Positions 1 through 48,725 of a DNA stretch of 64,000 bases are shown here, piece after piece. This DNA is from Nitrosopumilus sp. (GTDB lineage Archaea > Thermoproteota > Nitrososphaeria > Nitrososphaerales > Nitrosopumilaceae): positions 1,248,001 through 1,312,000 of the forward strand of contig OZ252243.1 in assembly GCA_965249555.1 (NCBI GenBank), written 5' to 3'. Every line of letters starts with the position of its first letter. Within the stretch, counting starts at the first letter, position 1. The notes below the pieces were generated by a model. The model worked only from the letters and a program-made list of their open reading frames with translations, was not told where the DNA came from and did no database searches. The position numbers and the translations under genes are program-made.

Positions 1-898
1 TGGGTTCCTTTTGGTAGCCAAATCAGTCTAACATCTGGATTATCTGTCAAAAAGTCCTTGACCTTCTTTGATTTGTGCACTGATGCCCTGTCAAGTATCA
101 ACGCAGTTTTACCATATTTGTAGTGCAACTCTTTTAGATATTCTACAAATGTTATGCCGTTGAATTTTTTATAAATTCTAAACAGTTGGTCTCCATTGAT
201 TGTAATTGTTCCATATACTGCCAAACTTTCATGGTCTCCCACATATGGGAGAAATATTCTTTTGGCAACTGGTGACCAATATTTTCGTCCTGCTTTTACA
301 TCCCTAACAAAGAATGCCTCATCAAGCATTGCAATGGTGAATCCACTCTTTTTTAGGTGTGGAATTCTCTTTTTCATGCGTTGCTGCCCAGCTGCGCACA
401 TCTGTTACACTTGCATGATTGATGTGATATTTTTGTGCAGTTTTAGCAGACATTCCATACATTCCATACTGGCGCATTATTTTTCTGACATGTGTTGTGT
501 GAAATTTTATTCCAGTAGAATCAAATATTGTCTGCTACAGCATTACAGGTGTAAATAGTGTCAACATAATTTTGAACATAATACAATTCATTTGCTTCTT
601 TGGGATTACACATGGTCTTTCACTCCTTGGGTGATCGTATAGGCCATCTACGTTAAAACGATCAACCCATTTGCGTACCCAGTTTGTACAGCGGTATAGT
701 GTTTGTGCGGTGTGCTCTAATTCCTTGCCATCTTTGAGAACCATTAGTACTGCAAGCATCCTGACTATATCTTTGGAGTTTTCCTTTTTGTATGCTGCTT
801 CAAGCTGTTCTAACTTGTTCATGTGTTTCATTGTGTGTGGTGATCAAAAAGTCTTTTGTTTTGATGATTTTTAGTTCACGAACTTTGACTCTTCGCTA
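1..898 (-). mobile_element. IS630-family insertion sequence (frameshifted; runs off the left edge of the window)
   Basis: ORF 535..831 encodes an HTH N-terminus (RMLAVLMV...WVRKWVDRFN..GL.D.PRS.RP). The minus-strand frame 377..1 reads ...AMLDEAFF...VYGTIT...LILDRASVHKS...LIWLPKGT, an IS630 DDE domain. The end reads TA|TAGCGAAGAGTCAAAG at about 898-900, consistent with a TA target. Confidence 0.8.
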
Positions 899-1881
899 TA
901 TGTTGGCATTGACTTGCACAAGAAATTTCTTCAAGTAGCAACAATGGATAATGACGGAAAAATATTACAAAACATAAAAGTTGAGAACACTCATGAATCA
1001 ATCAGGAAACATTTTACAGACATACCAATTCATGCCAATATTGTCATGGAATCATCATCAGTCTGGTATGGCACGTATAGGTTTCTTACAGATGAATTAG
1101 GATACAAAAACGTAACACTCTCAAACCCGTATCTTACAAAGGCAATAGCTGCATCAAAAAAAACAGACAAGATTGATGCCAGGATACTGGCAGATCTTTT
1201 GCGCGGGGGATACATTGCAACATGCCATATTCCAAACAAAAAGATAGTAAAACATCGCCAGCTGGTAAGATACAGAAAAAAACTCGTTCAGTGGAGAACA
1301 TCTCTCAAAAATTCTGTTCATGGAATTTTGTTACAGGAGGGAATCAAGATACCAGGAGTCACGTTCACTGTAACATACAACAAAAGACTTACCTCCCTGG
1401 GTGACTATCGCATAGATGGATTTGTACGACAGATAAGCCATCTTAATCTGCAAATTGAAGATATTAATTCAAGAGTGTATGCTGCCGTAAAGACCAGTCC
1501 TGATGCCATGATAATAAAATCAATACCAGGAATTGGTGACTAATCACTAGTTATTGCAGCAGAAATTGCAAATATTAGCAGATTCAACAACTCTCACAAG
1601 TTATGCGCATATGCAGGAGTCGTGCCATCAGTCAGAAATTCTGTAGATTACATCATGGCCGTATAACCAAAAGAGGAAGCATGACACTACGATGGGTTCT
1701 TGTCCAATGTGTCTATGTCCATACACTACATGCCAAGAACAGTGACATTACAAAATTTTACAATCGCATTAAGAAAAAGAGAGGCTCATCAAAAGATGTA
1801 GTTGCTGCATCATCCCAGATTCTGCGAGTGATTTACTGGATGCTAAAAGAGAGGAGAGAATTTGTACAGAATTACAGTTAG
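899..1881 (+). pseudogene. IS110-family recombinase/transposase pseudogene
   Basis: Reads YVGIDLHKK...VMES...KKTDKIDA..LA (DEDD RuvC domain), then SIPGIGD* with an in-frame TAA at 1541. It continues IAAEIANISRF...LCAYAGVVPSVRNS, frameshifts near 1650, and ends GRITKRGS..LRWVL. The start codon has been removed by the IS630. Confidence 0.9.
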
Positions 1882-2090
1882 GACTTCAAGTCGCGTTAAG
1901 CATGTTGAGGGACAAGCCTCGTCTGTTTAACTGCGAATAGTCCTAACGAAGGGATGAAGATAGCATTGAGGTTAAAGCCTCGTATGGATACATGTCCGTC
2001 ATCTTTTGATTGAAAGCATTCCCTAGCGAAGGCTATGCCTTGGGATGCAAAAAAGTGGGAAATGTATAAAAACAATTCACATGGATAATC
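1877..2090 (+). ncRNA. Structured non-coding right end of IS110; candidate bridge/seek RNA
   Basis: Three consecutive stem-loops (1877-1947, ~1949-2007, ~2016-2048). The first two share the motif AGCAT(GT)TGAGG-N3-AAG-CCTCGT. Confidence 0.6.
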
Positions 2091-2210
2091 ATATTAGATC
2101 TGTTTCAGCACCCGAAAGTAAACACGAAGAATTTTGTGATCTAACCCACGCAGATTACTCAGAACTAACATGGTTCATATTTATTAACCTTGTATAGGTC
2201 AATGTATGAT

Positions 2211-2351
2211 ATGAATCAAGATAGAATTAATTGGGATGAAAAGGCAGCTAAGGCTTTTGCCCGTCATGAATTGGATTTGGAACGAAAGTTTGAGAAAGAA
2301 GACACAAATGTAAATATATCCTCAATAGATGAGTTATTGAGTGACAATTGA
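2211..2351 (+). CDS. Small acidic protein (46 aa), antitoxin-like
   Basis: MNQDRINWDEKAAKAF...ISSIDELLSDN; overlaps the start of a downstream degenerate ORF. Confidence 0.4.
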   Translation: MNQDRINWDEKAAKAFARHELDLERKFEKEDTNVNISSIDELLSDN

Positions 2352-2658
2352 AACTATTTGGAAAAGGAACTTTGATAGAGAGTTCAAAGTAACATTTCAG
2401 TTTCTATTACGTACAGATCAAGAATTAATCTGGGATGCAACTACAAAAATTTCTAATGCTAAAAATCCAAGAACAGTTTATCCACATGCATAATGTACTG
2501 CAGTTAGAAATCATATAATATGCAAGATTGAAGAAGAATACATCCTAGCTTTTAAAATAAAATAACAAGACAAACAAATTCACTTTATAGAATTTTACAG
2601 TTCACTACCAAGTAACAAAATGAATGTTACAAAACTACATTCAACTTACCAACTTTAG
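2341..2658 (+). pseudogene. Degenerate ORF, possibly RelE/ParE-like toxin
   Basis: GTG start: TIETIWKRNFDREFK...NPR...ICKIEEEYILAFKIK, with in-frame stops at 2491 and 2563. Confidence 0.3.
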
Positions 2659-2739
2659 GAGGCTTCTTCTTCGGGAGTTATGTTTAGTTACACACTTTAT
2701 GTTTGCATCTTGGGACTCGATAAGTGTAGTAATACATAA

Positions 2740-2814
2740 CGGGCCCAAAGGGCTTCGATCCCTTGACTTTTGGATTAGAAGTCCAACACGCTATCCATGC
2801 TGCGTCATAGGCCC
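2740..2814 (-). tRNA. tRNA-Arg(TCT)
   Basis: Cloverleaf GGGCCTA...TTGGA-CTTCTAA-TCCAA...TGGGCCC. Confidence 0.95.
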
Positions 2815-2847
2815 AAAAACCTAGCAATTAATTACCATTTTAAGGGT

Positions 2848-3711
2848 TTACAGCCACTTTTTTTGGTAATTTTCTCTTTCCATTTTGAAGAGAAATTGTT
2901 GTGCATATCCTGCATATGGACCAAAATGATTTACAATTTTTTCATGAAGAATATCATATTGTTTTTTTGTAATTGTCTTTGTCTCAAGTTGAAATTCATT
3001 AAAAAAATATTTTTCTAAAATTCTAATCATCCATCTATCTAATGGAAATGCCTCCAATTTGTTTAACGAAAATAACATTACGCAATCTGCAACTTTATTC
3101 CCAACCCCTGGAATAGAACAAATACTCTCCCTAGTCTCAAAATAATCCGATTTTTTTAAACTCTCAAAATCTATTTTTTTTAAAAAAATTATATTTGCAG
3201 CTTCTTTGATAAATTTAGCTCTGTATCCTACACCGCAATCTTTAATTTCATTAATTGATGCTTTGGCAAGTTTCTTTGGTGTAGGAAATAAAAAAAATTC
3301 TTGATTTTCAAACTCGACCTCTGTCCCAAACTTTCTTGATATCTTTTCAAGACTAGTTTTTATTTTTTGAATATTAGAATTCGAAGATACAATAAATGAA
3401 ATCAAACATTGAAAAGGATCTTGTTTGAGAATTCTTAAACCAAGATATTTTTTTACAGCCTTTCTAGTTGTACTGTCTTTTGAAATTGACTTTATTATTT
3501 GCTCCATATTGTCTTTTTTTCTAAAAAAATCTGTTTTTGTATTCTGATATGATTTGATGCTTCCAGAACTGGCAACCCTTAGAATATCTTGGCCATTTAC
3601 CCCATACCAATAATCTCCATTTTTTCTCCAAAGAAATACCTGACCACTGTTTATTGAAATTTCTACATTTATTGCATTGTTGTTTTGCATTTTAGACAGT
3701 AATTGTATCAT
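2848..3711 (-). CDS. 8-oxoguanine DNA glycosylase/AP lyase (OGG1-like)
   Basis: SGQVFLW, QDPFQCLISFIVSSN and HhH-GPD motif IPGVGNKVADC...FPLD. Confidence 0.88.
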   Translation of the reverse strand: MIQLLSKMQNNNAINVEISINSGQVFLWRKNGDYWYGVNGQDILRVASSGSIKSYQNTKTDFFRKKDNMEQIIKSISKDSTTRKAVKKYLGLRILKQDPFQCLISFIVSSNSNIQKIKTSLEKISRKFGTEVEFENQEFFLFPTPKKLAKASINEIKDCGVGYRAKFIKEAANIIFLKKIDFESLKKSDYFETRESICSIPGVGNKVADCVMLFSLNKLEAFPLDRWMIRILEKYFFNEFQLETKTITKKQYDILHEKIVNHFGPYAGYAQQFLFKMERENYQKKWL

Positions 3712-4957
3712 TTACTGCAGGGGCATATGTTTCTAAACCAAATTTTTCATGAATTTCTTTAGCAAACATTTCACATGATTCAGAATCTCCATGAACTGTC
3801 CATACCTTTGGATTTCCTTTGATTTTTTTAATCATGCCAAACAATTCATTTCTATCTGCATGACCTGAAAACTCAAACTGTTTTACCTCTGCTGAAACAT
3901 TGACGTCTTTACCTCTTGTTGATACCTTTCCTGTTTCAAGTAATTTTTTACCTGGTGTGCCTTCACCTTGATACGATACTAGGGCAATTCCATTTTTATC
4001 ATTAAATGCCAAGTGCTGTAAATAAAATACAGCATTTCCTCCAACTAACATTCCCGCAGGTGAGATTACTACACAAGGCTCCCCCATTGCACGTTTTCTT
4101 TCAGCATGTTCCCTTATTGCAGTTGCACTGTTTATTGCCTCTGAAAAAATTTTAGGATCTCTTAGATAATCTGGATGTCTAAACATTATTTCATTTACTT
4201 TTAGTGCCATTCCATCCATGATAATTCTATGTTTGAAATTTACACTCTTTAAAATACATGCAATCTCTTGAGAGCGTTCAACTGAAAATGATGGAATAAA
4301 CAATATTCCTTTCCTATCCATCACTTCGTTTGCAAATTCAATTAACTCCTTTTCTGATTCTCTCCTAGGTTTTTGTTCTGTTTTGGCATATGTGCTTTCA
4401 GTAATCAGTAAATCAATTTCCCCAATGTCCAAATCCATCTCTCGAAGCATTCTTGAACCATTTGTTTTGATATCTCCTGTATAGAAGAGTCGTTTTTTCT
4501 CTGACTCTACCAAAACAGTACTACCTCCAATTACATGTCCTGATTCTCTTAATTCAAAAGTTGCATTTCCCTTGGTAACTTTTTGTTTAAATCCAGTTTC
4601 CTTAGCATTTTTCATCATATTGTTTAGTTCAGGCAGATCAAATGGATGTGAGTTCTTTTCGATTTTTAGCATATCTTCAATCAATAACTTTGACAGATCA
4701 AAAGTTGGAGGTGTGGCATAGACGTCAGTATTTCCACTTACAAAAAGGGATGGAACATTTCCTGAATGATCTAAATGAGCATGAGTAATTATGATTGCAT
4801 CAAGATCTTTTGGTTTTACATGAAGTGGATATCCTGGAGGTGTTCCCCTTCTACCAAATAATACCCCATAATCCAGCAAGAGATTTGTTCCATTACAATT
4901 AACTAAAAAACCCGATCTGCCAACTTCGTTTGCAGCTCCTAAAACTTTAACATCCAA
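3692..4957 (-). CDS. MBL-fold beta-CASP ribonuclease (aCPSF2-like)
   Basis: GAANEVGRS, THAHLDHSG, GHVIG, YTGD, ESTY and FSGHAD motifs. Confidence 0.9.
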   Translation of the reverse strand: MDVKVLGAANEVGRSGFLVNCNGTNLLLDYGVLFGRRGTPPGYPLHVKPKDLDAIIITHAHLDHSGNVPSLFVSGNTDVYATPPTFDLSKLLIEDMLKIEKNSHPFDLPELNNMMKNAKETGFKQKVTKGNATFELRESGHVIGGSTVLVESEKKRLFYTGDIKTNGSRMLREMDLDIGEIDLLITESTYAKTEQKPRRESEKELIEFANEVMDRKGILFIPSFSVERSQEIACILKSVNFKHRIIMDGMALKVNEIMFRHPDYLRDPKIFSEAINSATAIREHAERKRAMGEPCVVISPAGMLVGGNAVFYLQHLAFNDKNGIALVSYQGEGTPGKKLLETGKVSTRGKDVNVSAEVKQFEFSGHADRNELFGMIKKIKGNPKVWTVHGDSESCEMFAKEIHEKFGLETYAPAVNDTITV

Positions 4958-39585: not shown

Positions 39586-40236
39586 ATGGTCTGGTTAAGA
39601 CGATGTACACACTACTTATTCATAGTAGTAGTTGCAGTTAACTCTACACTGTTAACAATTAATGCAGGAGACTACATTTTCTATACCGATTGGGCTTGGA
39701 CTTCATTTACGGTATTTTCAATATCGCAAACGTTGATGCTTGTAGTAGGTGCATGTTATTACCTAACGTTTACAGGTGTTCCAGGTACAGCGACGTACTA
39801 CGCTCTAATTATGACAGTATACACATGGATAGCAAAAGGTGCATGGTTTTCCCTTGGATATCCATATGACTTCATTGTAACTCCAGTTTGGCTACCATCA
39901 GCAATGCTGTTGGACTTGGTTTACTGGGCAACAAAGAAGAACAAGCACTCCTTGATACTGTTTGGCGGCGTACTGGTAGGAATGTCATTACCGTTGTTTA
40001 ACATGGTAAACCTGATAACAGTAGCAGACCCGCTTGAAACGGCGTTCAAATATCCGAGACCAACATTACCACCATACATGACACCGATAGAACCGCAGGT
40101 AGGAAAGTTCTATAACAGTCCAGTAGCGCTGGGTGCCGGTGCCGGTGCAGTATTGTCAGTCACGATGGCTGCGTTGGGTGTTAAACTTAACACTTGGACG
40201 TACCGATGGATGGCCGCTTGGTCAAAGTGGGACTAA
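39586..40236 (+). CDS. amoA: Ammonia monooxygenase subunit A
   Basis: MVWLRRCTHYLFIVVVAVNSTLLTINAGDYIFYTDWAW...WSKWD. Confidence 0.99.
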   Translation: MVWLRRCTHYLFIVVVAVNSTLLTINAGDYIFYTDWAWTSFTVFSISQTLMLVVGACYYLTFTGVPGTATYYALIMTVYTWIAKGAWFSLGYPYDFIVTPVWLPSAMLLDLVYWATKKNKHSLILFGGVLVGMSLPLFNMVNLITVADPLETAFKYPRPTLPPYMTPIEPQVGKFYNSPVALGAGAGAVLSVTMAALGVKLNTWTYRWMAAWSKWD

Positions 40237-47283: not shown

Positions 47284-48725
47284 GTATGAATCAAGCACTT
47301 AGATGTATTTTGCCATCTCAGAAAACATGTTCAATTCCCTTATTCTCCATGTCTCAAAGCATGTGAGAAAGACTGAGATCATCCTCATGCCCTGATCACT
47401 CTTCATCTGCCCGCGAACATTCCTCTGCATCACGCACTTTCGAATGGAATTCTCTGCATCATTGTTAGTTGACGGGACATCGCCATCCATGACAAACGTA
47501 AACATGCTGTTCCTTGCAGTCTTTAGCTTCTTGCCAAACTGAACCATCTCCATATCACCTTTCAAATATCGTGCAATGATACGGTCTAGCTGTTTTAGTA
47601 AATCATCCCTGTACGTTTCCCGCCGTTTTGTATGACGATTACCTACACTCCAAACCCTGGCATGACCTAGCATATCTGAGAGTTTCTCGTATAGAATCCT
47701 TGCCTTTTTGTCCTGTGATTTTATTGCCAGATATTTGGCATCGCGCTGCAGGTGTGCAGTGCATCTCTGCTTTGTGTTATCACAAAATACTGTCCTGTAC
47801 GGAGCATATCCGTCAGACACTAGGGTTCCTTTGAATTTCTTCCAGTACTTTTTTAGAACATTGGCACCTCTGCTGTACTCCAAGGCATACTGTGCACTAG
47901 TCTTGCTTCTTGCAACCCACATCCATCCAGTATTTCCATCAATTGAAAATCCTGTCTCATCGATTCCGAGAATATTTTCAGTCACGATTTCGCTGTGGAT
48001 TGTATTGTAAAATGACTCTAACATCACACTACCGTTGCGAAGAATGGATTGTACGGTTGTATTGCTGATTTCTAATCCATATCTTTCATAGAGTGTGGTT
48101 CTGATAGCATCGTATGTCAATCTCTTTGAGAACAGTGAGACGACCTCACGTATCACTGAACCATCAAAACATCCATGTAGTGGAAGGTTTCCCGTGGTTT
48201 GAAAATTATCAGAACAGTCCATGCAGATGTATTGATTCAAAACATGCTCAGTTATACCGTAGGGTGTTGGTGGAGGAATCTCAACCATTATCCTTTTGCA
48301 GGTTTTGGTTTGATGAATATTTTCACTACCGCATTTGGGACATGCATCTGATCTGTGGTGTTTGGTGCTAGTTGGTCTGAATTTCTGTGTCTTGCCAACG
48401 TGTCCTGCTATTCCACCACGTCTTGATTTGCCTGGCTGTCTGTGTTGTCTTTTTTGCTTTCTCCATTCAAGGGAATTCTTTGATGGCGGAGAGTGTGCAT
48501 TCTCATAATATGACAGCTTTTTTTGCAGTTCCTTGTTTGATTCTATGAGATTTTCTATGATTAGCGGTAGTTGTTTTAACTTTTCTTGCAGTTGTTTTAT
48601 CTCTGCTTGTAGCTGTATGATGATTTTCTCATGACCACAACCTGACATGTTTTGTATGATGATTTAGTTGATCTTAGATCTTTTTGTGTAATGATATTGA
48701 TTTGTGCGTGAAGGTTGATACATAC
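47284..48725 (-). mobile_element. IS66-family element (single-ORF, ISBst12-like), 1442 bp
   Basis: TIRs GTATGAATCAAGC / GTATGTATCAACC. 8-bp TSD ATTTAGAG at 47276-47283 and 48726-48733. Confidence 0.93.
47299..48648 (-). CDS. tnpC: IS66 transposase TnpC (intact)
   Basis: Coiled coil, HSPPS, CPKCG, IDETG, SDGYAPY, QRCTAHLQR, TNNDAENSIR. Confidence 0.93.
   Translation of the reverse strand: MSGCGHEKIIIQLQAEIKQLQEKLKQLPLIIENLIESNKELQKKLSYYENAHSPPSKNSLEWRKQKRQHRQPGKSRRGGIAGHVGKTQKFRPTSTKHHRSDACPKCGSENIHQTKTCKRIMVEIPPPTPYGITEHVLNQYICMDCSDNFQTTGNLPLHGCFDGSVIREVVSLFSKRLTYDAIRTTLYERYGLEISNTTVQSILRNGSVMLESFYNTIHSEIVTENILGIDETGFSIDGNTGWMWVARSKTSAQYALEYSRGANVLKKYWKKFKGTLVSDGYAPYRTVFCDNTKQRCTAHLQRDAKYLAIKSQDKKARILYEKLSDMLGHARVWSVGNRHTKRRETYRDDLLKQLDRIIARYLKGDMEMVQFGKKLKTARNSMFTFVMDGDVPSTNNDAENSIRKCVMQRNVRGQMKSDQGMRMISVFLTCFETWRIRELNMFSEMAKYI

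Follow-up and report, generated by a model that had tools for sequence, protein, structure and literature searches.

We find that positions 1877-2012 of the window (the whole stretch of 64,000 nucleotides from a Nitrosopumilus sp. genome that was analysed) very probably encode the bridge (seek) RNA of an IS1111-type element of the IS110 family in an ammonia-oxidising archaeon. A first-pass annotation had proposed an RNA of this kind after the recombinase stop codon. Going beyond it, our sequence comparisons identify the first hairpin of the putative RNA as its target loop and the second as its donor loop. The label "thaumarchaeal" that the annotation used is a fair one, because an archaeal AmoA gene lies inside the window (~39631-40179, + strand; PF12942, 390 bits; matched in 0 of 14 control genomes); the host genome also has an archaeal-type SSU rRNA.

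A conserved two-module structure downstream of the recombinase gene

On the + strand, window 1870-2100 folds into the three hairpins that had been proposed, with a free energy of -67.9 kcal/mol against -51.0 +/- 4.3 for shuffled sequences (z -3.93, matched by 0 of 200 shuffles); the - strand reaches -55.2 kcal/mol (z -3.01), and 2 of 200 shuffles do as well. All of the sequence strings named in the first-pass annotation lie where it placed them, among them the stem GTTAGGACT (1877-1885) / AGTCCTAAC (1939-1947), the pair TCGC/GCGA (1891-1894/1933-1936), GAGG/CCTC in both hairpins, and ATGGATA at both 1984-1990 and 2081-2087. The hairpins are as follows.

1877..1947, + strand: hairpin 1, the putative target-binding module, from fold and covariance model
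1952..1997, + strand: hairpin 2, the putative donor-binding module, from fold and covariance model
2016..2048, + strand: hairpin 3, with a lineage-specific outer stem and an inner stem TAGC 2024-2027 / GCTA 2032-2035 around a 4-nt loop

Hairpin 1 consists of a basal stem (1877-1884/1940-1947), a closing stem (TCGCG 1891-1895 / TGCGA 1932-1936) and an apical stem (TGAGG 1906-1910 / CCTCG 1917-1921), and hairpin 2 of a closing stem (GGATG 1952-1956 / TGTCC 1993-1997) and an apical stem (TGAGG 1967-1971 / CCTCG 1978-1982). The two modules thus share one plan, in which a closing stem that ends in a G.U pair encloses two strands of 9-10 nt, one on either side of an apical TGRGG/CCYCG hairpin. We conclude that the two loops are homologous, as had been suggested, because the apical modules within one element are somewhat closer to each other than to those of other elements (normalised edit distance 0.29 vs 0.40); in two lineages they are identical.

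The same RNA is kept 3' of the gene in relatives down to 41% protein identity. For its comparison we used a covariance model, R1, with a hand-written structure of 28 pairs in five helices, which replaced RNAalifold on a plain MAFFT alignment, a procedure that had yielded 20 pairs with register errors. R1 recovers 27 full-length RNAs among 40 sources, and matches the window at 1867-2012 with 135 bits. Homologous ends show both structural conservation and covariation: in the R1 alignment of 28 sequences, which leans towards the structure because it was fitted to the model, 87.1% of cells are paired, as opposed to 36-46% when the partners are slid, and 21 of the 28 pairs contain compensatory double changes. 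The observed pairing and covariation values were reached by 0 of 500 shuffles, and the number of further pair types by 1 of 500; in the earlier, unfitted alignment, double changes were already present in 12 of 20 pairs. The closing pairs of the two modules are nearly always G.U (27 of 27 and 26 of 28), and therefore only the + strand fits. At the apical stem of module 1 the R1 alignment is poor, with 61% paired.

Two of the proposed stems need revision. The hairpin 2 described earlier is real, and its conserved closing stem is GGATG/TGTCC (98.5% of cells paired), with which the outer pairing AAGGGATGA/TCATCTTTT that had been proposed as its closure competes. Hairpin 3 folds as described, and its GCATTCC/GGGATGC outer stem is not conserved in relatives; the inner TAGC-GNRA-GCTA hairpin is weakly conserved, with 81.7% of cells paired and two pairs with double changes, a level of pairing reached by 28 of 500 shuffles. 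We considered hairpin 3 as a third element of a conserved three-way feature and rejected it, relatives retaining just the 4-bp hairpin. A scan of window 1-4000 with Rfam at E values up to 10 returned only a tRNA and a chance match, and nothing within 1877-2090.

The recombinase and its distribution

Fragments of the gene in the window match PF01548 (DEDD_Tnp_IS110, E 2.2e-20) and PF02371 (Transposase_20, E 8.8e-07), and an intact 331-aa copy from the same genome matches NCBIfam NF033542, "IS110 family RNA-guided transposase", with 225.6 bits (cut-off 140). The intact protein aligns to the recombinases of IS621 (E 1.5e-13) and ISCro4 (E 2.7e-13) in the PDB; in the alignment to IS621, YVGID / VMES / KTDKIDA / RNSA stand opposite YIGID / CIEA / KTDTVDA / YESG, in columns that we take to hold the catalytic D-E-D-D and serine residues. 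The serine motif reads GVVPSVRNSA, in which the serine is retained and the next residue is A (the IS1111 motif is GL-P----S(t)G).

We found relatives of the recombinase in 33 of 201 sampled genomes of the family, distributed over 10 of 27 genera. Searching 151 genomes of the phylum with R1 gave matches in four, all of the window's own family (three of 19 genomes besides that of the window), and none in 131 genomes from 33 other families, which is no evidence that other archaea are without such RNAs because R1 is sequence-specific.

The element and its copies in the genome

With window 840-2200 as query, we found 44 matches elsewhere in the genome (2.23 Mb, one contig), the majority of which span query positions 60-1248, that is, window 899-2087. 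The element end that had been placed at the second ATGGATA is thus at 2087, where most of the matches stop, and not before ~1950. In the window, the element has the following parts.

899..2087, + strand: body of the IS1111-type (IS110 family) element, left end absent
899..1881, + strand: broken recombinase gene, with Pfam DEDD_Tnp_IS110 and Transposase_20 on fragments
2065..2072, + strand: TATA-box-like motif TATAAAAA, facing outward over the element end
2075..2087, + strand: right subterminal inverted repeat ATTCACAT (2075-2082), terminus GGA, core TA (2086-2087)

By BLAST the genome holds 40 pieces of the element, 10 of them full length; the copies are 90-94% identical to that of the window, and most of the pieces are truncated or broken. 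Extension of an intact copy established that the complete element measures 1337 bp and comprises a left end of 133 nt, a gene of 331 codons and a right end of ~210 nt, which is non-coding and corresponds to window 1877-2090. The gene is uninterrupted in three of the 10 full-length copies and has a broken frame in the other seven. Left ends (20 boundaries) start with (A/T)TA-ACTATATGTGAATA, right ends (28 boundaries) close with AATTCACATGGA-TA, and each junction between element and flank has one TA. An 8-bp subterminal inverted repeat is present as ATGTGAAT 5 nt inside the left end, and its partner ATTCACAT sits 3 nt (GGA) ahead of the core TA of the right end; relatives retain these repeats as CATATGTG / CACAT(G/A)G. 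The TATA-box-like motif (TTTAWAAA / TTATAAA) stands at a constant distance from the right terminus in 15 of 15 aligned relatives.

One subfamily has a left end that begins ATAGC instead of ATAAC. In these copies, at genome 94803, 1239984, 1247674, 1854327, 2071119, 2194383 and 2210591, the last 28 nt of the right repeat of an IS66-like element (see below) are fused to the left end, with unique DNA beyond; the left end at 1247674 is that of the window copy. The motif CAAACAAACAGATTA is kept in the 5' leader of the recombinase gene, ~20-50 nt ahead of the start codon, in left ends of relatives at 52% to 100% identity. Among relatives, an identical 29 bp flanks the element on both sides at L031 (G039), and the terminal 15-50 nt of the right end are tandemly duplicated at L033 (G014) and L034 (G089). 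In one genome, G125:C2 186960-189030 and two similar sites each carry two distinct IS110-family genes, 45% and 44% identical to the query, arranged head to tail with under 100 nt between them.

Donor-loop and target-loop strands

Each module carries two unpaired strands, which in the window copy are assigned as follows.

1957..1966, + strand: donor loop, 5' strand, AAGATAGCAT; when reverse-complemented, it matches the start of the left end, (TA)GCTAT
1983..1992, + strand: donor loop, 3' strand, T-ATGGA-TA-CA; right-end terminus and core TA, followed by 2 nt that equal the commonest right flank
1896..1905, + strand: target loop, 5' strand (right-target guide), TTAAGCATGT; the target half predicted from its reverse complement is core A followed by CATGCTTAA
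1922..1931, + strand: target loop, 3' strand (left-target guide), TCTGTT-TA-AC; core TA at 1928-1929, followed by 2 nt that equal the left-end start

Our parse of the loop strands covers 31 loci and 16 genome copies and leaves 5 loci and 4 copies outside the counts; four of the loci so excluded show the same code by eye. The parser demanded TA, TG and CG anchors, and the TA is invariant in an unconstrained MAFFT alignment too.

The donor guide that had been recognised in hairpin 2 is indeed visible, matching both the right-end terminus and the left-end start. Module 2 carries ATGGATA or ATAGATA, identical to the element's own right end over 7 nt, in 13 of the 17 parsed lineages, the remaining four differing by parse length offsets or one mismatch; in G084, ATGGGTA likewise matches the right end by eye. 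In 14 of 14 cases the donor 5' strand, reverse-complemented, agrees with TA and the start of the left end over 3-6 nt, and it tracks the left-end changes ACCAT, ATCAT and GCTAT. The two nucleotides after the donor-loop core match the partner DNA in nine of 27 cases. In intact copies a same-sense copy of the donor 5' strand, CAGATAGCAT, also occurs ~35 nt inward of the left terminus (for example at about 1400-1420 in L021), and relatives L023-L033 have CAGATGGTTG or the like there; it forms an inverted repeat of the left-end start, and the two change together.

The strands of module 1 follow the DNA on either side of the insertion. The reverse complement of the 5' strand equals the core A or TA plus the right flank, and the 3' strand equals the left flank, TA and the first two nucleotides of the element. 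With offsets of -1 to +2 allowed (among lineages the right guide drifts in register by up to 3 nt against TA), the 5' strand matches TA plus right flank with a median run of 7, reaching at least 6 nt in 24 of 38 distinct cognate pairs, as opposed to a mean run of 2.7 and 4 of 1222 among non-cognate pairs. The 3' strand matches at least 4 nt directly left of TA in 9 of 25 pairs and in 0 of 568 non-cognate ones. These counts, in which 14 of the 38 right-side pairs fall below 6 nt and 16 of the 25 left-side pairs below 4 nt, are not of independent events because copies and relatives are kin. In 16 of 20 distinct cases, the target-loop 3' strand ends in the same two nucleotides with which the element begins. 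The loop strands agree with the target flanks and the donor ends and change with them, as the first-pass annotation required of homologous copies.

Aligning the 20 right ends of the window's genome, we observed that the stems are constant and that hairpin 1 has two short strands of very high variability. The target strands vary at 0.334 and 0.347 per column, about five times as much as the remaining right end (0.063); the donor strands vary at 0-0.009, and the TA with its following two nucleotides at 0. These 20 copies contain 10 distinct right guides and 8 left guides. The three intact copies each have a different target guide, matching their own right flank over 7-9 nt:

intact copy with guides TTTGGTATGT / GTTGATAAC: target GGTTGA-TA-CATACC
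intact copy with guides TTATGATTGT / TTTTTTAAC: flanks ...GATTTT-TA and TA-CAATCATAA
intact copy with guide TTTTATATGT: flank TA-CATATAA

Insertion sites

The main target lies at the outer end of the terminal repeat that bounds an IS66-like element (GTTGA-TA-CATAC). This element, of 1442 bp, has a 454-aa frame, 8-bp target duplications and a terminal repeat GTATG(A/T)ATCAA..., and is present in ~30 copies, one of which lies in the window.

47284-48725: one IS66-like copy

The right flank is CATAC, the outermost 5 nt of this terminal repeat, at 15 of the 28 right boundaries, as against only four left flanks that are IS66-like ends. One of these belongs to the intact copy at genome 709346-710682, where an IS66-like end, ...GAAGGTTGA-TA, is followed by the element, then by TA-CATAC, and beyond that by unique DNA; IS66-like ends that run uninterrupted, ...GAAGGTTGATACATAC, number about 25 elsewhere. 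This copy is a clean filled site beside empty ones, with TA as the shared core. The three further left flanks are the opposite terminal repeat of the IS66-like element. From the commonest guide a 12-nt target is predicted, and of its 49 occurrences in the genome 39 are at IS66-like right ends.

We also considered whether CATAC could belong to the element itself, which is ruled out: 13 of the 28 right ends differ immediately after ATGGA-TA (ATGGAT in two), and in the filled site removal at TA restores the IS66-like end exactly. Three IS66-like copies stand in tandem at genome 2202955-2207296, with the same 8 nt between them.

The window copy

The copy in the window is a dead, non-autonomous relic, because its gene is broken, its left end is split off and its guides are non-cognate to its flanks. 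That this recombinase is dead had been noted before. It has a premature TAA at 1541-1543 and a 4-nt deletion that shifts the frame, and its start codon is split off. Its left end and start codon lie outside the window because another element has inserted at the TA of codon 2, duplicating that TA:

window 1..900 (genome 1247805-1248900), - strand: IS630-like element of ~1094 bp (DDE_3 and HTH remnants), continuing left of the window

The frame of the IS630-like element is itself broken, and its terminal 60 nt are found 100% identical at several other sites in the genome. To the right, a tRNA-Arg gene (anticodon TCT) lies at window 2739-2815 (- strand), ~650 nt from the right end of the element.

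The donor loop of the window copy is intact. Its target strands, TTAAGCATGT / TCTGTTTAAC, do not fit its own flanks (score 2), and their full predicted target has zero occurrences in the genome. They resemble the flanks of other fragments, on the right side CATGC (genome 491965) and on the left side ...CTG-T-TA (genome 1194763 and 1493946). According to the account of IS1111 elements in PMC11187229, a donor must occupy its correct target to move. The two strands are also complementary to each other, which bears on the inner stem GTTAAGCA/TGTTTAAC that had been assigned to hairpin 1. This stem did not hold up as a general feature: its strands are the two guides, paired at 8 of 10 and 9 of 10 nt in the window copy, compared with a mean of 0.47 in 29 guide variants, and the pairing is peculiar to this copy.

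Alternative explanations and proposed mechanism

The structure adjoins and overlaps the stop codon of the recombinase gene, as might be expected of a 3' UTR, terminator or mRNA-stabilising structure without a guiding role, beside which the repeated ATGGATA would be a coincidence; a 7-mer repeated within 100 nt is weak evidence taken alone. However, a terminator cannot account for loop strands that track the flanks (24/38 vs 4/1222), for the G to A changes that the donor strand makes together with the element end in relatives, or for a five-fold excess of variation limited to two strands of 5-10 nt, and we regard this explanation as highly improbable. We hold it to be just as improbable that the structure acts as single-stranded DNA, its subterminal hairpins supplying guide bases as in IS200/IS605. 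Covariation alone cannot separate an RNA from single-stranded DNA of the same strand, but the protein is a DEDD/Tnp recombinase of the IS110 family, for which RNA guides have been shown experimentally in the systems described in PMC11187229 and PMC11208160; the conserved G.U closing pairs and the sense orientation 3' of the gene suit a transcript, and the + strand folds better than the - strand.

A further alternative accepts that the family once used a guide RNA and holds that all copies in this genome are now fossils, whose guide-flank matches record history; we think this possible, if on the doubtful side. The copies are not near-identical to the window copy, most of the 40 pieces have decayed and seven of the ten full-length frames are broken, and neither an RE-LE circle junction nor an empty-site joint is found among the matches listed in the assembled contigs of four DNA runs, where contigs break in the repeat, a result that is uninformative for rare forms. 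Against this stand the three copies with an uninterrupted 331-codon gene, the distinct guides by which these copies fit their own right flanks, and the 39 apparently empty targets of the main guide at IS66-like right ends. We can propose only tentatively that the system is alive and has reprogrammed itself, with three intact elements bearing three site-fitting guides and a complete archaeal TATA-type promoter that fires across the circle junction. In the same four DNA runs, one contig has an odd internal joint on an intact copy.

For the bridge RNA reading, which we prefer, transcription and processing of the RNA, its binding by the recombinase and the recombination itself are inferred from the family as described in PMC11187229, PMC11208160 and PMC13626964. 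Recombinase gene and RNA probably share one transcript, because the basal stem of the RNA overlaps the gene's stop codon. In module 1, the 5' strand would pair with the top strand of the target, over the core A and 5-9 nt of right flank, and the 3' strand (5-6 nt of left flank, TA and the first two nucleotides of the element) would pair with the bottom strand because it has top-strand sense. In module 2, the 3' strand copies the right-end terminus ATGGA plus TA, and the 5' strand would pair with the left-end start. One loop would be placed on the circular RE-LE junction and the other on the target, and the RNA-loaded DEDD/serine recombinase would unite the junction (...CACATGGA-TA-ACTATATG...) with the target LT-TA-RT, the strands being exchanged at the TA core; the two nucleotides after the core would behave like the reported handshake guides. 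The TATA-box-like motif of the right end, a possible promoter across the circle junction, could drive transcription over it.

Comparison with known systems

The IS1111 seekRNA systems studied by Siddiquee et al. 2024 (PMC11187229) are those of ISEc11, ISPa11 and ISKpn4, and the element fits this type, judged by its predicted downstream RNA, subterminal repeats, recombinase length and order of strand matches, its serine motif SA deviating. The IS1111 group has its longer non-coding region downstream of the gene (here ~210 nt on the right vs 133 nt on the left) and subterminal inverted repeats of 7-17 bp (here 8 bp). As far as the description in PMC11187229 goes, the RNA is likewise encoded 3' of the recombinase gene, and the same source gives a recombinase of 330-350 aa (here 331 aa) and the same strand order, with the complement of the top strand 5' of that of the bottom strand. 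The conserved two-module RNA, at ~145 nt, compares with the "long" seekRNA of 145-170 nt in PMC11187229, and module 1 alone, at ~70 nt, with the shorter size of 70-100 nt. Unlike the systems of PMC11187229, the element described here has an archaeal host, a TA core, the motif SA (SG/TG/TA in those systems) and no matching Rfam family, and is known from sequence alone. We infer a further difference in that those systems have a split bacterial junction promoter and this element a TATA-box-like motif in its right end.

The bridge RNAs of IS621 (Durrant et al. 2024, PMC11208160) and ISCro4 (Hiraizumi et al. 2026, PMC13626964), as described there, likewise have a target loop and a donor loop, both internal and programmable, each of which reads the two DNA strands around a core dinucleotide common to both; the two nucleotides after the core that match the partner DNA resemble the reported handshake guides. 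In the description of IS621 (PMC11208160), however, the RNA is in the left end, in contrast to the right end here, and the order of guides within a loop is the reverse of that found here. The cores differ as well (TA here, CT in IS621 as described), and the proteins are remotely similar (54 bits).

The nearest named relative that we found, in a plasmid collection, is ISHvo9 of haloarchaea, whose IS110-family recombinase is of similar length (32% identity over 97% of the query). R1 gave no significant match on the ISHvo9 locus (best E 0.21, upstream of the gene), which suggests that its RNA, if any, belongs to another sequence family. On both sides of the ISHvo9 gene lies the sequence CATAGGTGAAT (L079, Haloferax volcanii pHV4, 548-560 and 1817-1830).

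IS4321 and IS5075 belong to the IS1111 group and use the terminal repeats of Tn21-family transposons as insertion sites. As here, the preferred site is the terminal inverted repeat of another mobile element, entered in one orientation; in contrast to IS4321 and IS5075, the target here is an archaeal IS66-like element, and other guide variants in the genome aim elsewhere.

Significance

Bridge and seek RNAs, described in bacterial IS110/IS1111 elements, are already known as a kind, because archaeal IS110-family recombinases have been surveyed (662 in the survey of 10.1101/2024.06.21.599552, as reported there) and bridge RNAs predicted for most IS1111 elements (93% of those catalogued, as stated in PMC11208160). 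Our search found no literature that ties a bridge RNA to Nitroso* or to ammonia-oxidising archaea, and supplementary tables may list archaeal elements. We know of no genetic system for ammonia-oxidising archaea. If the system is alive, it would be a native, compact (331 aa and ~145 nt), mesophilic programmable recombinase in these organisms, with a ready landing pad in the IS66-like element, and could thus provide a native tool for archaea in which manipulation is difficult. The element is also an example of one archaeal insertion sequence landing in the terminal repeat of another. The locus family, in which guide strands change together with flanks across many diverged copies, is a purely genomic natural experiment, and the pairing code, the TA core and the 2-nt "handshake" positions can thus be read from genomes without experiment; it offers an unusually clear natural record of guide reprogramming.
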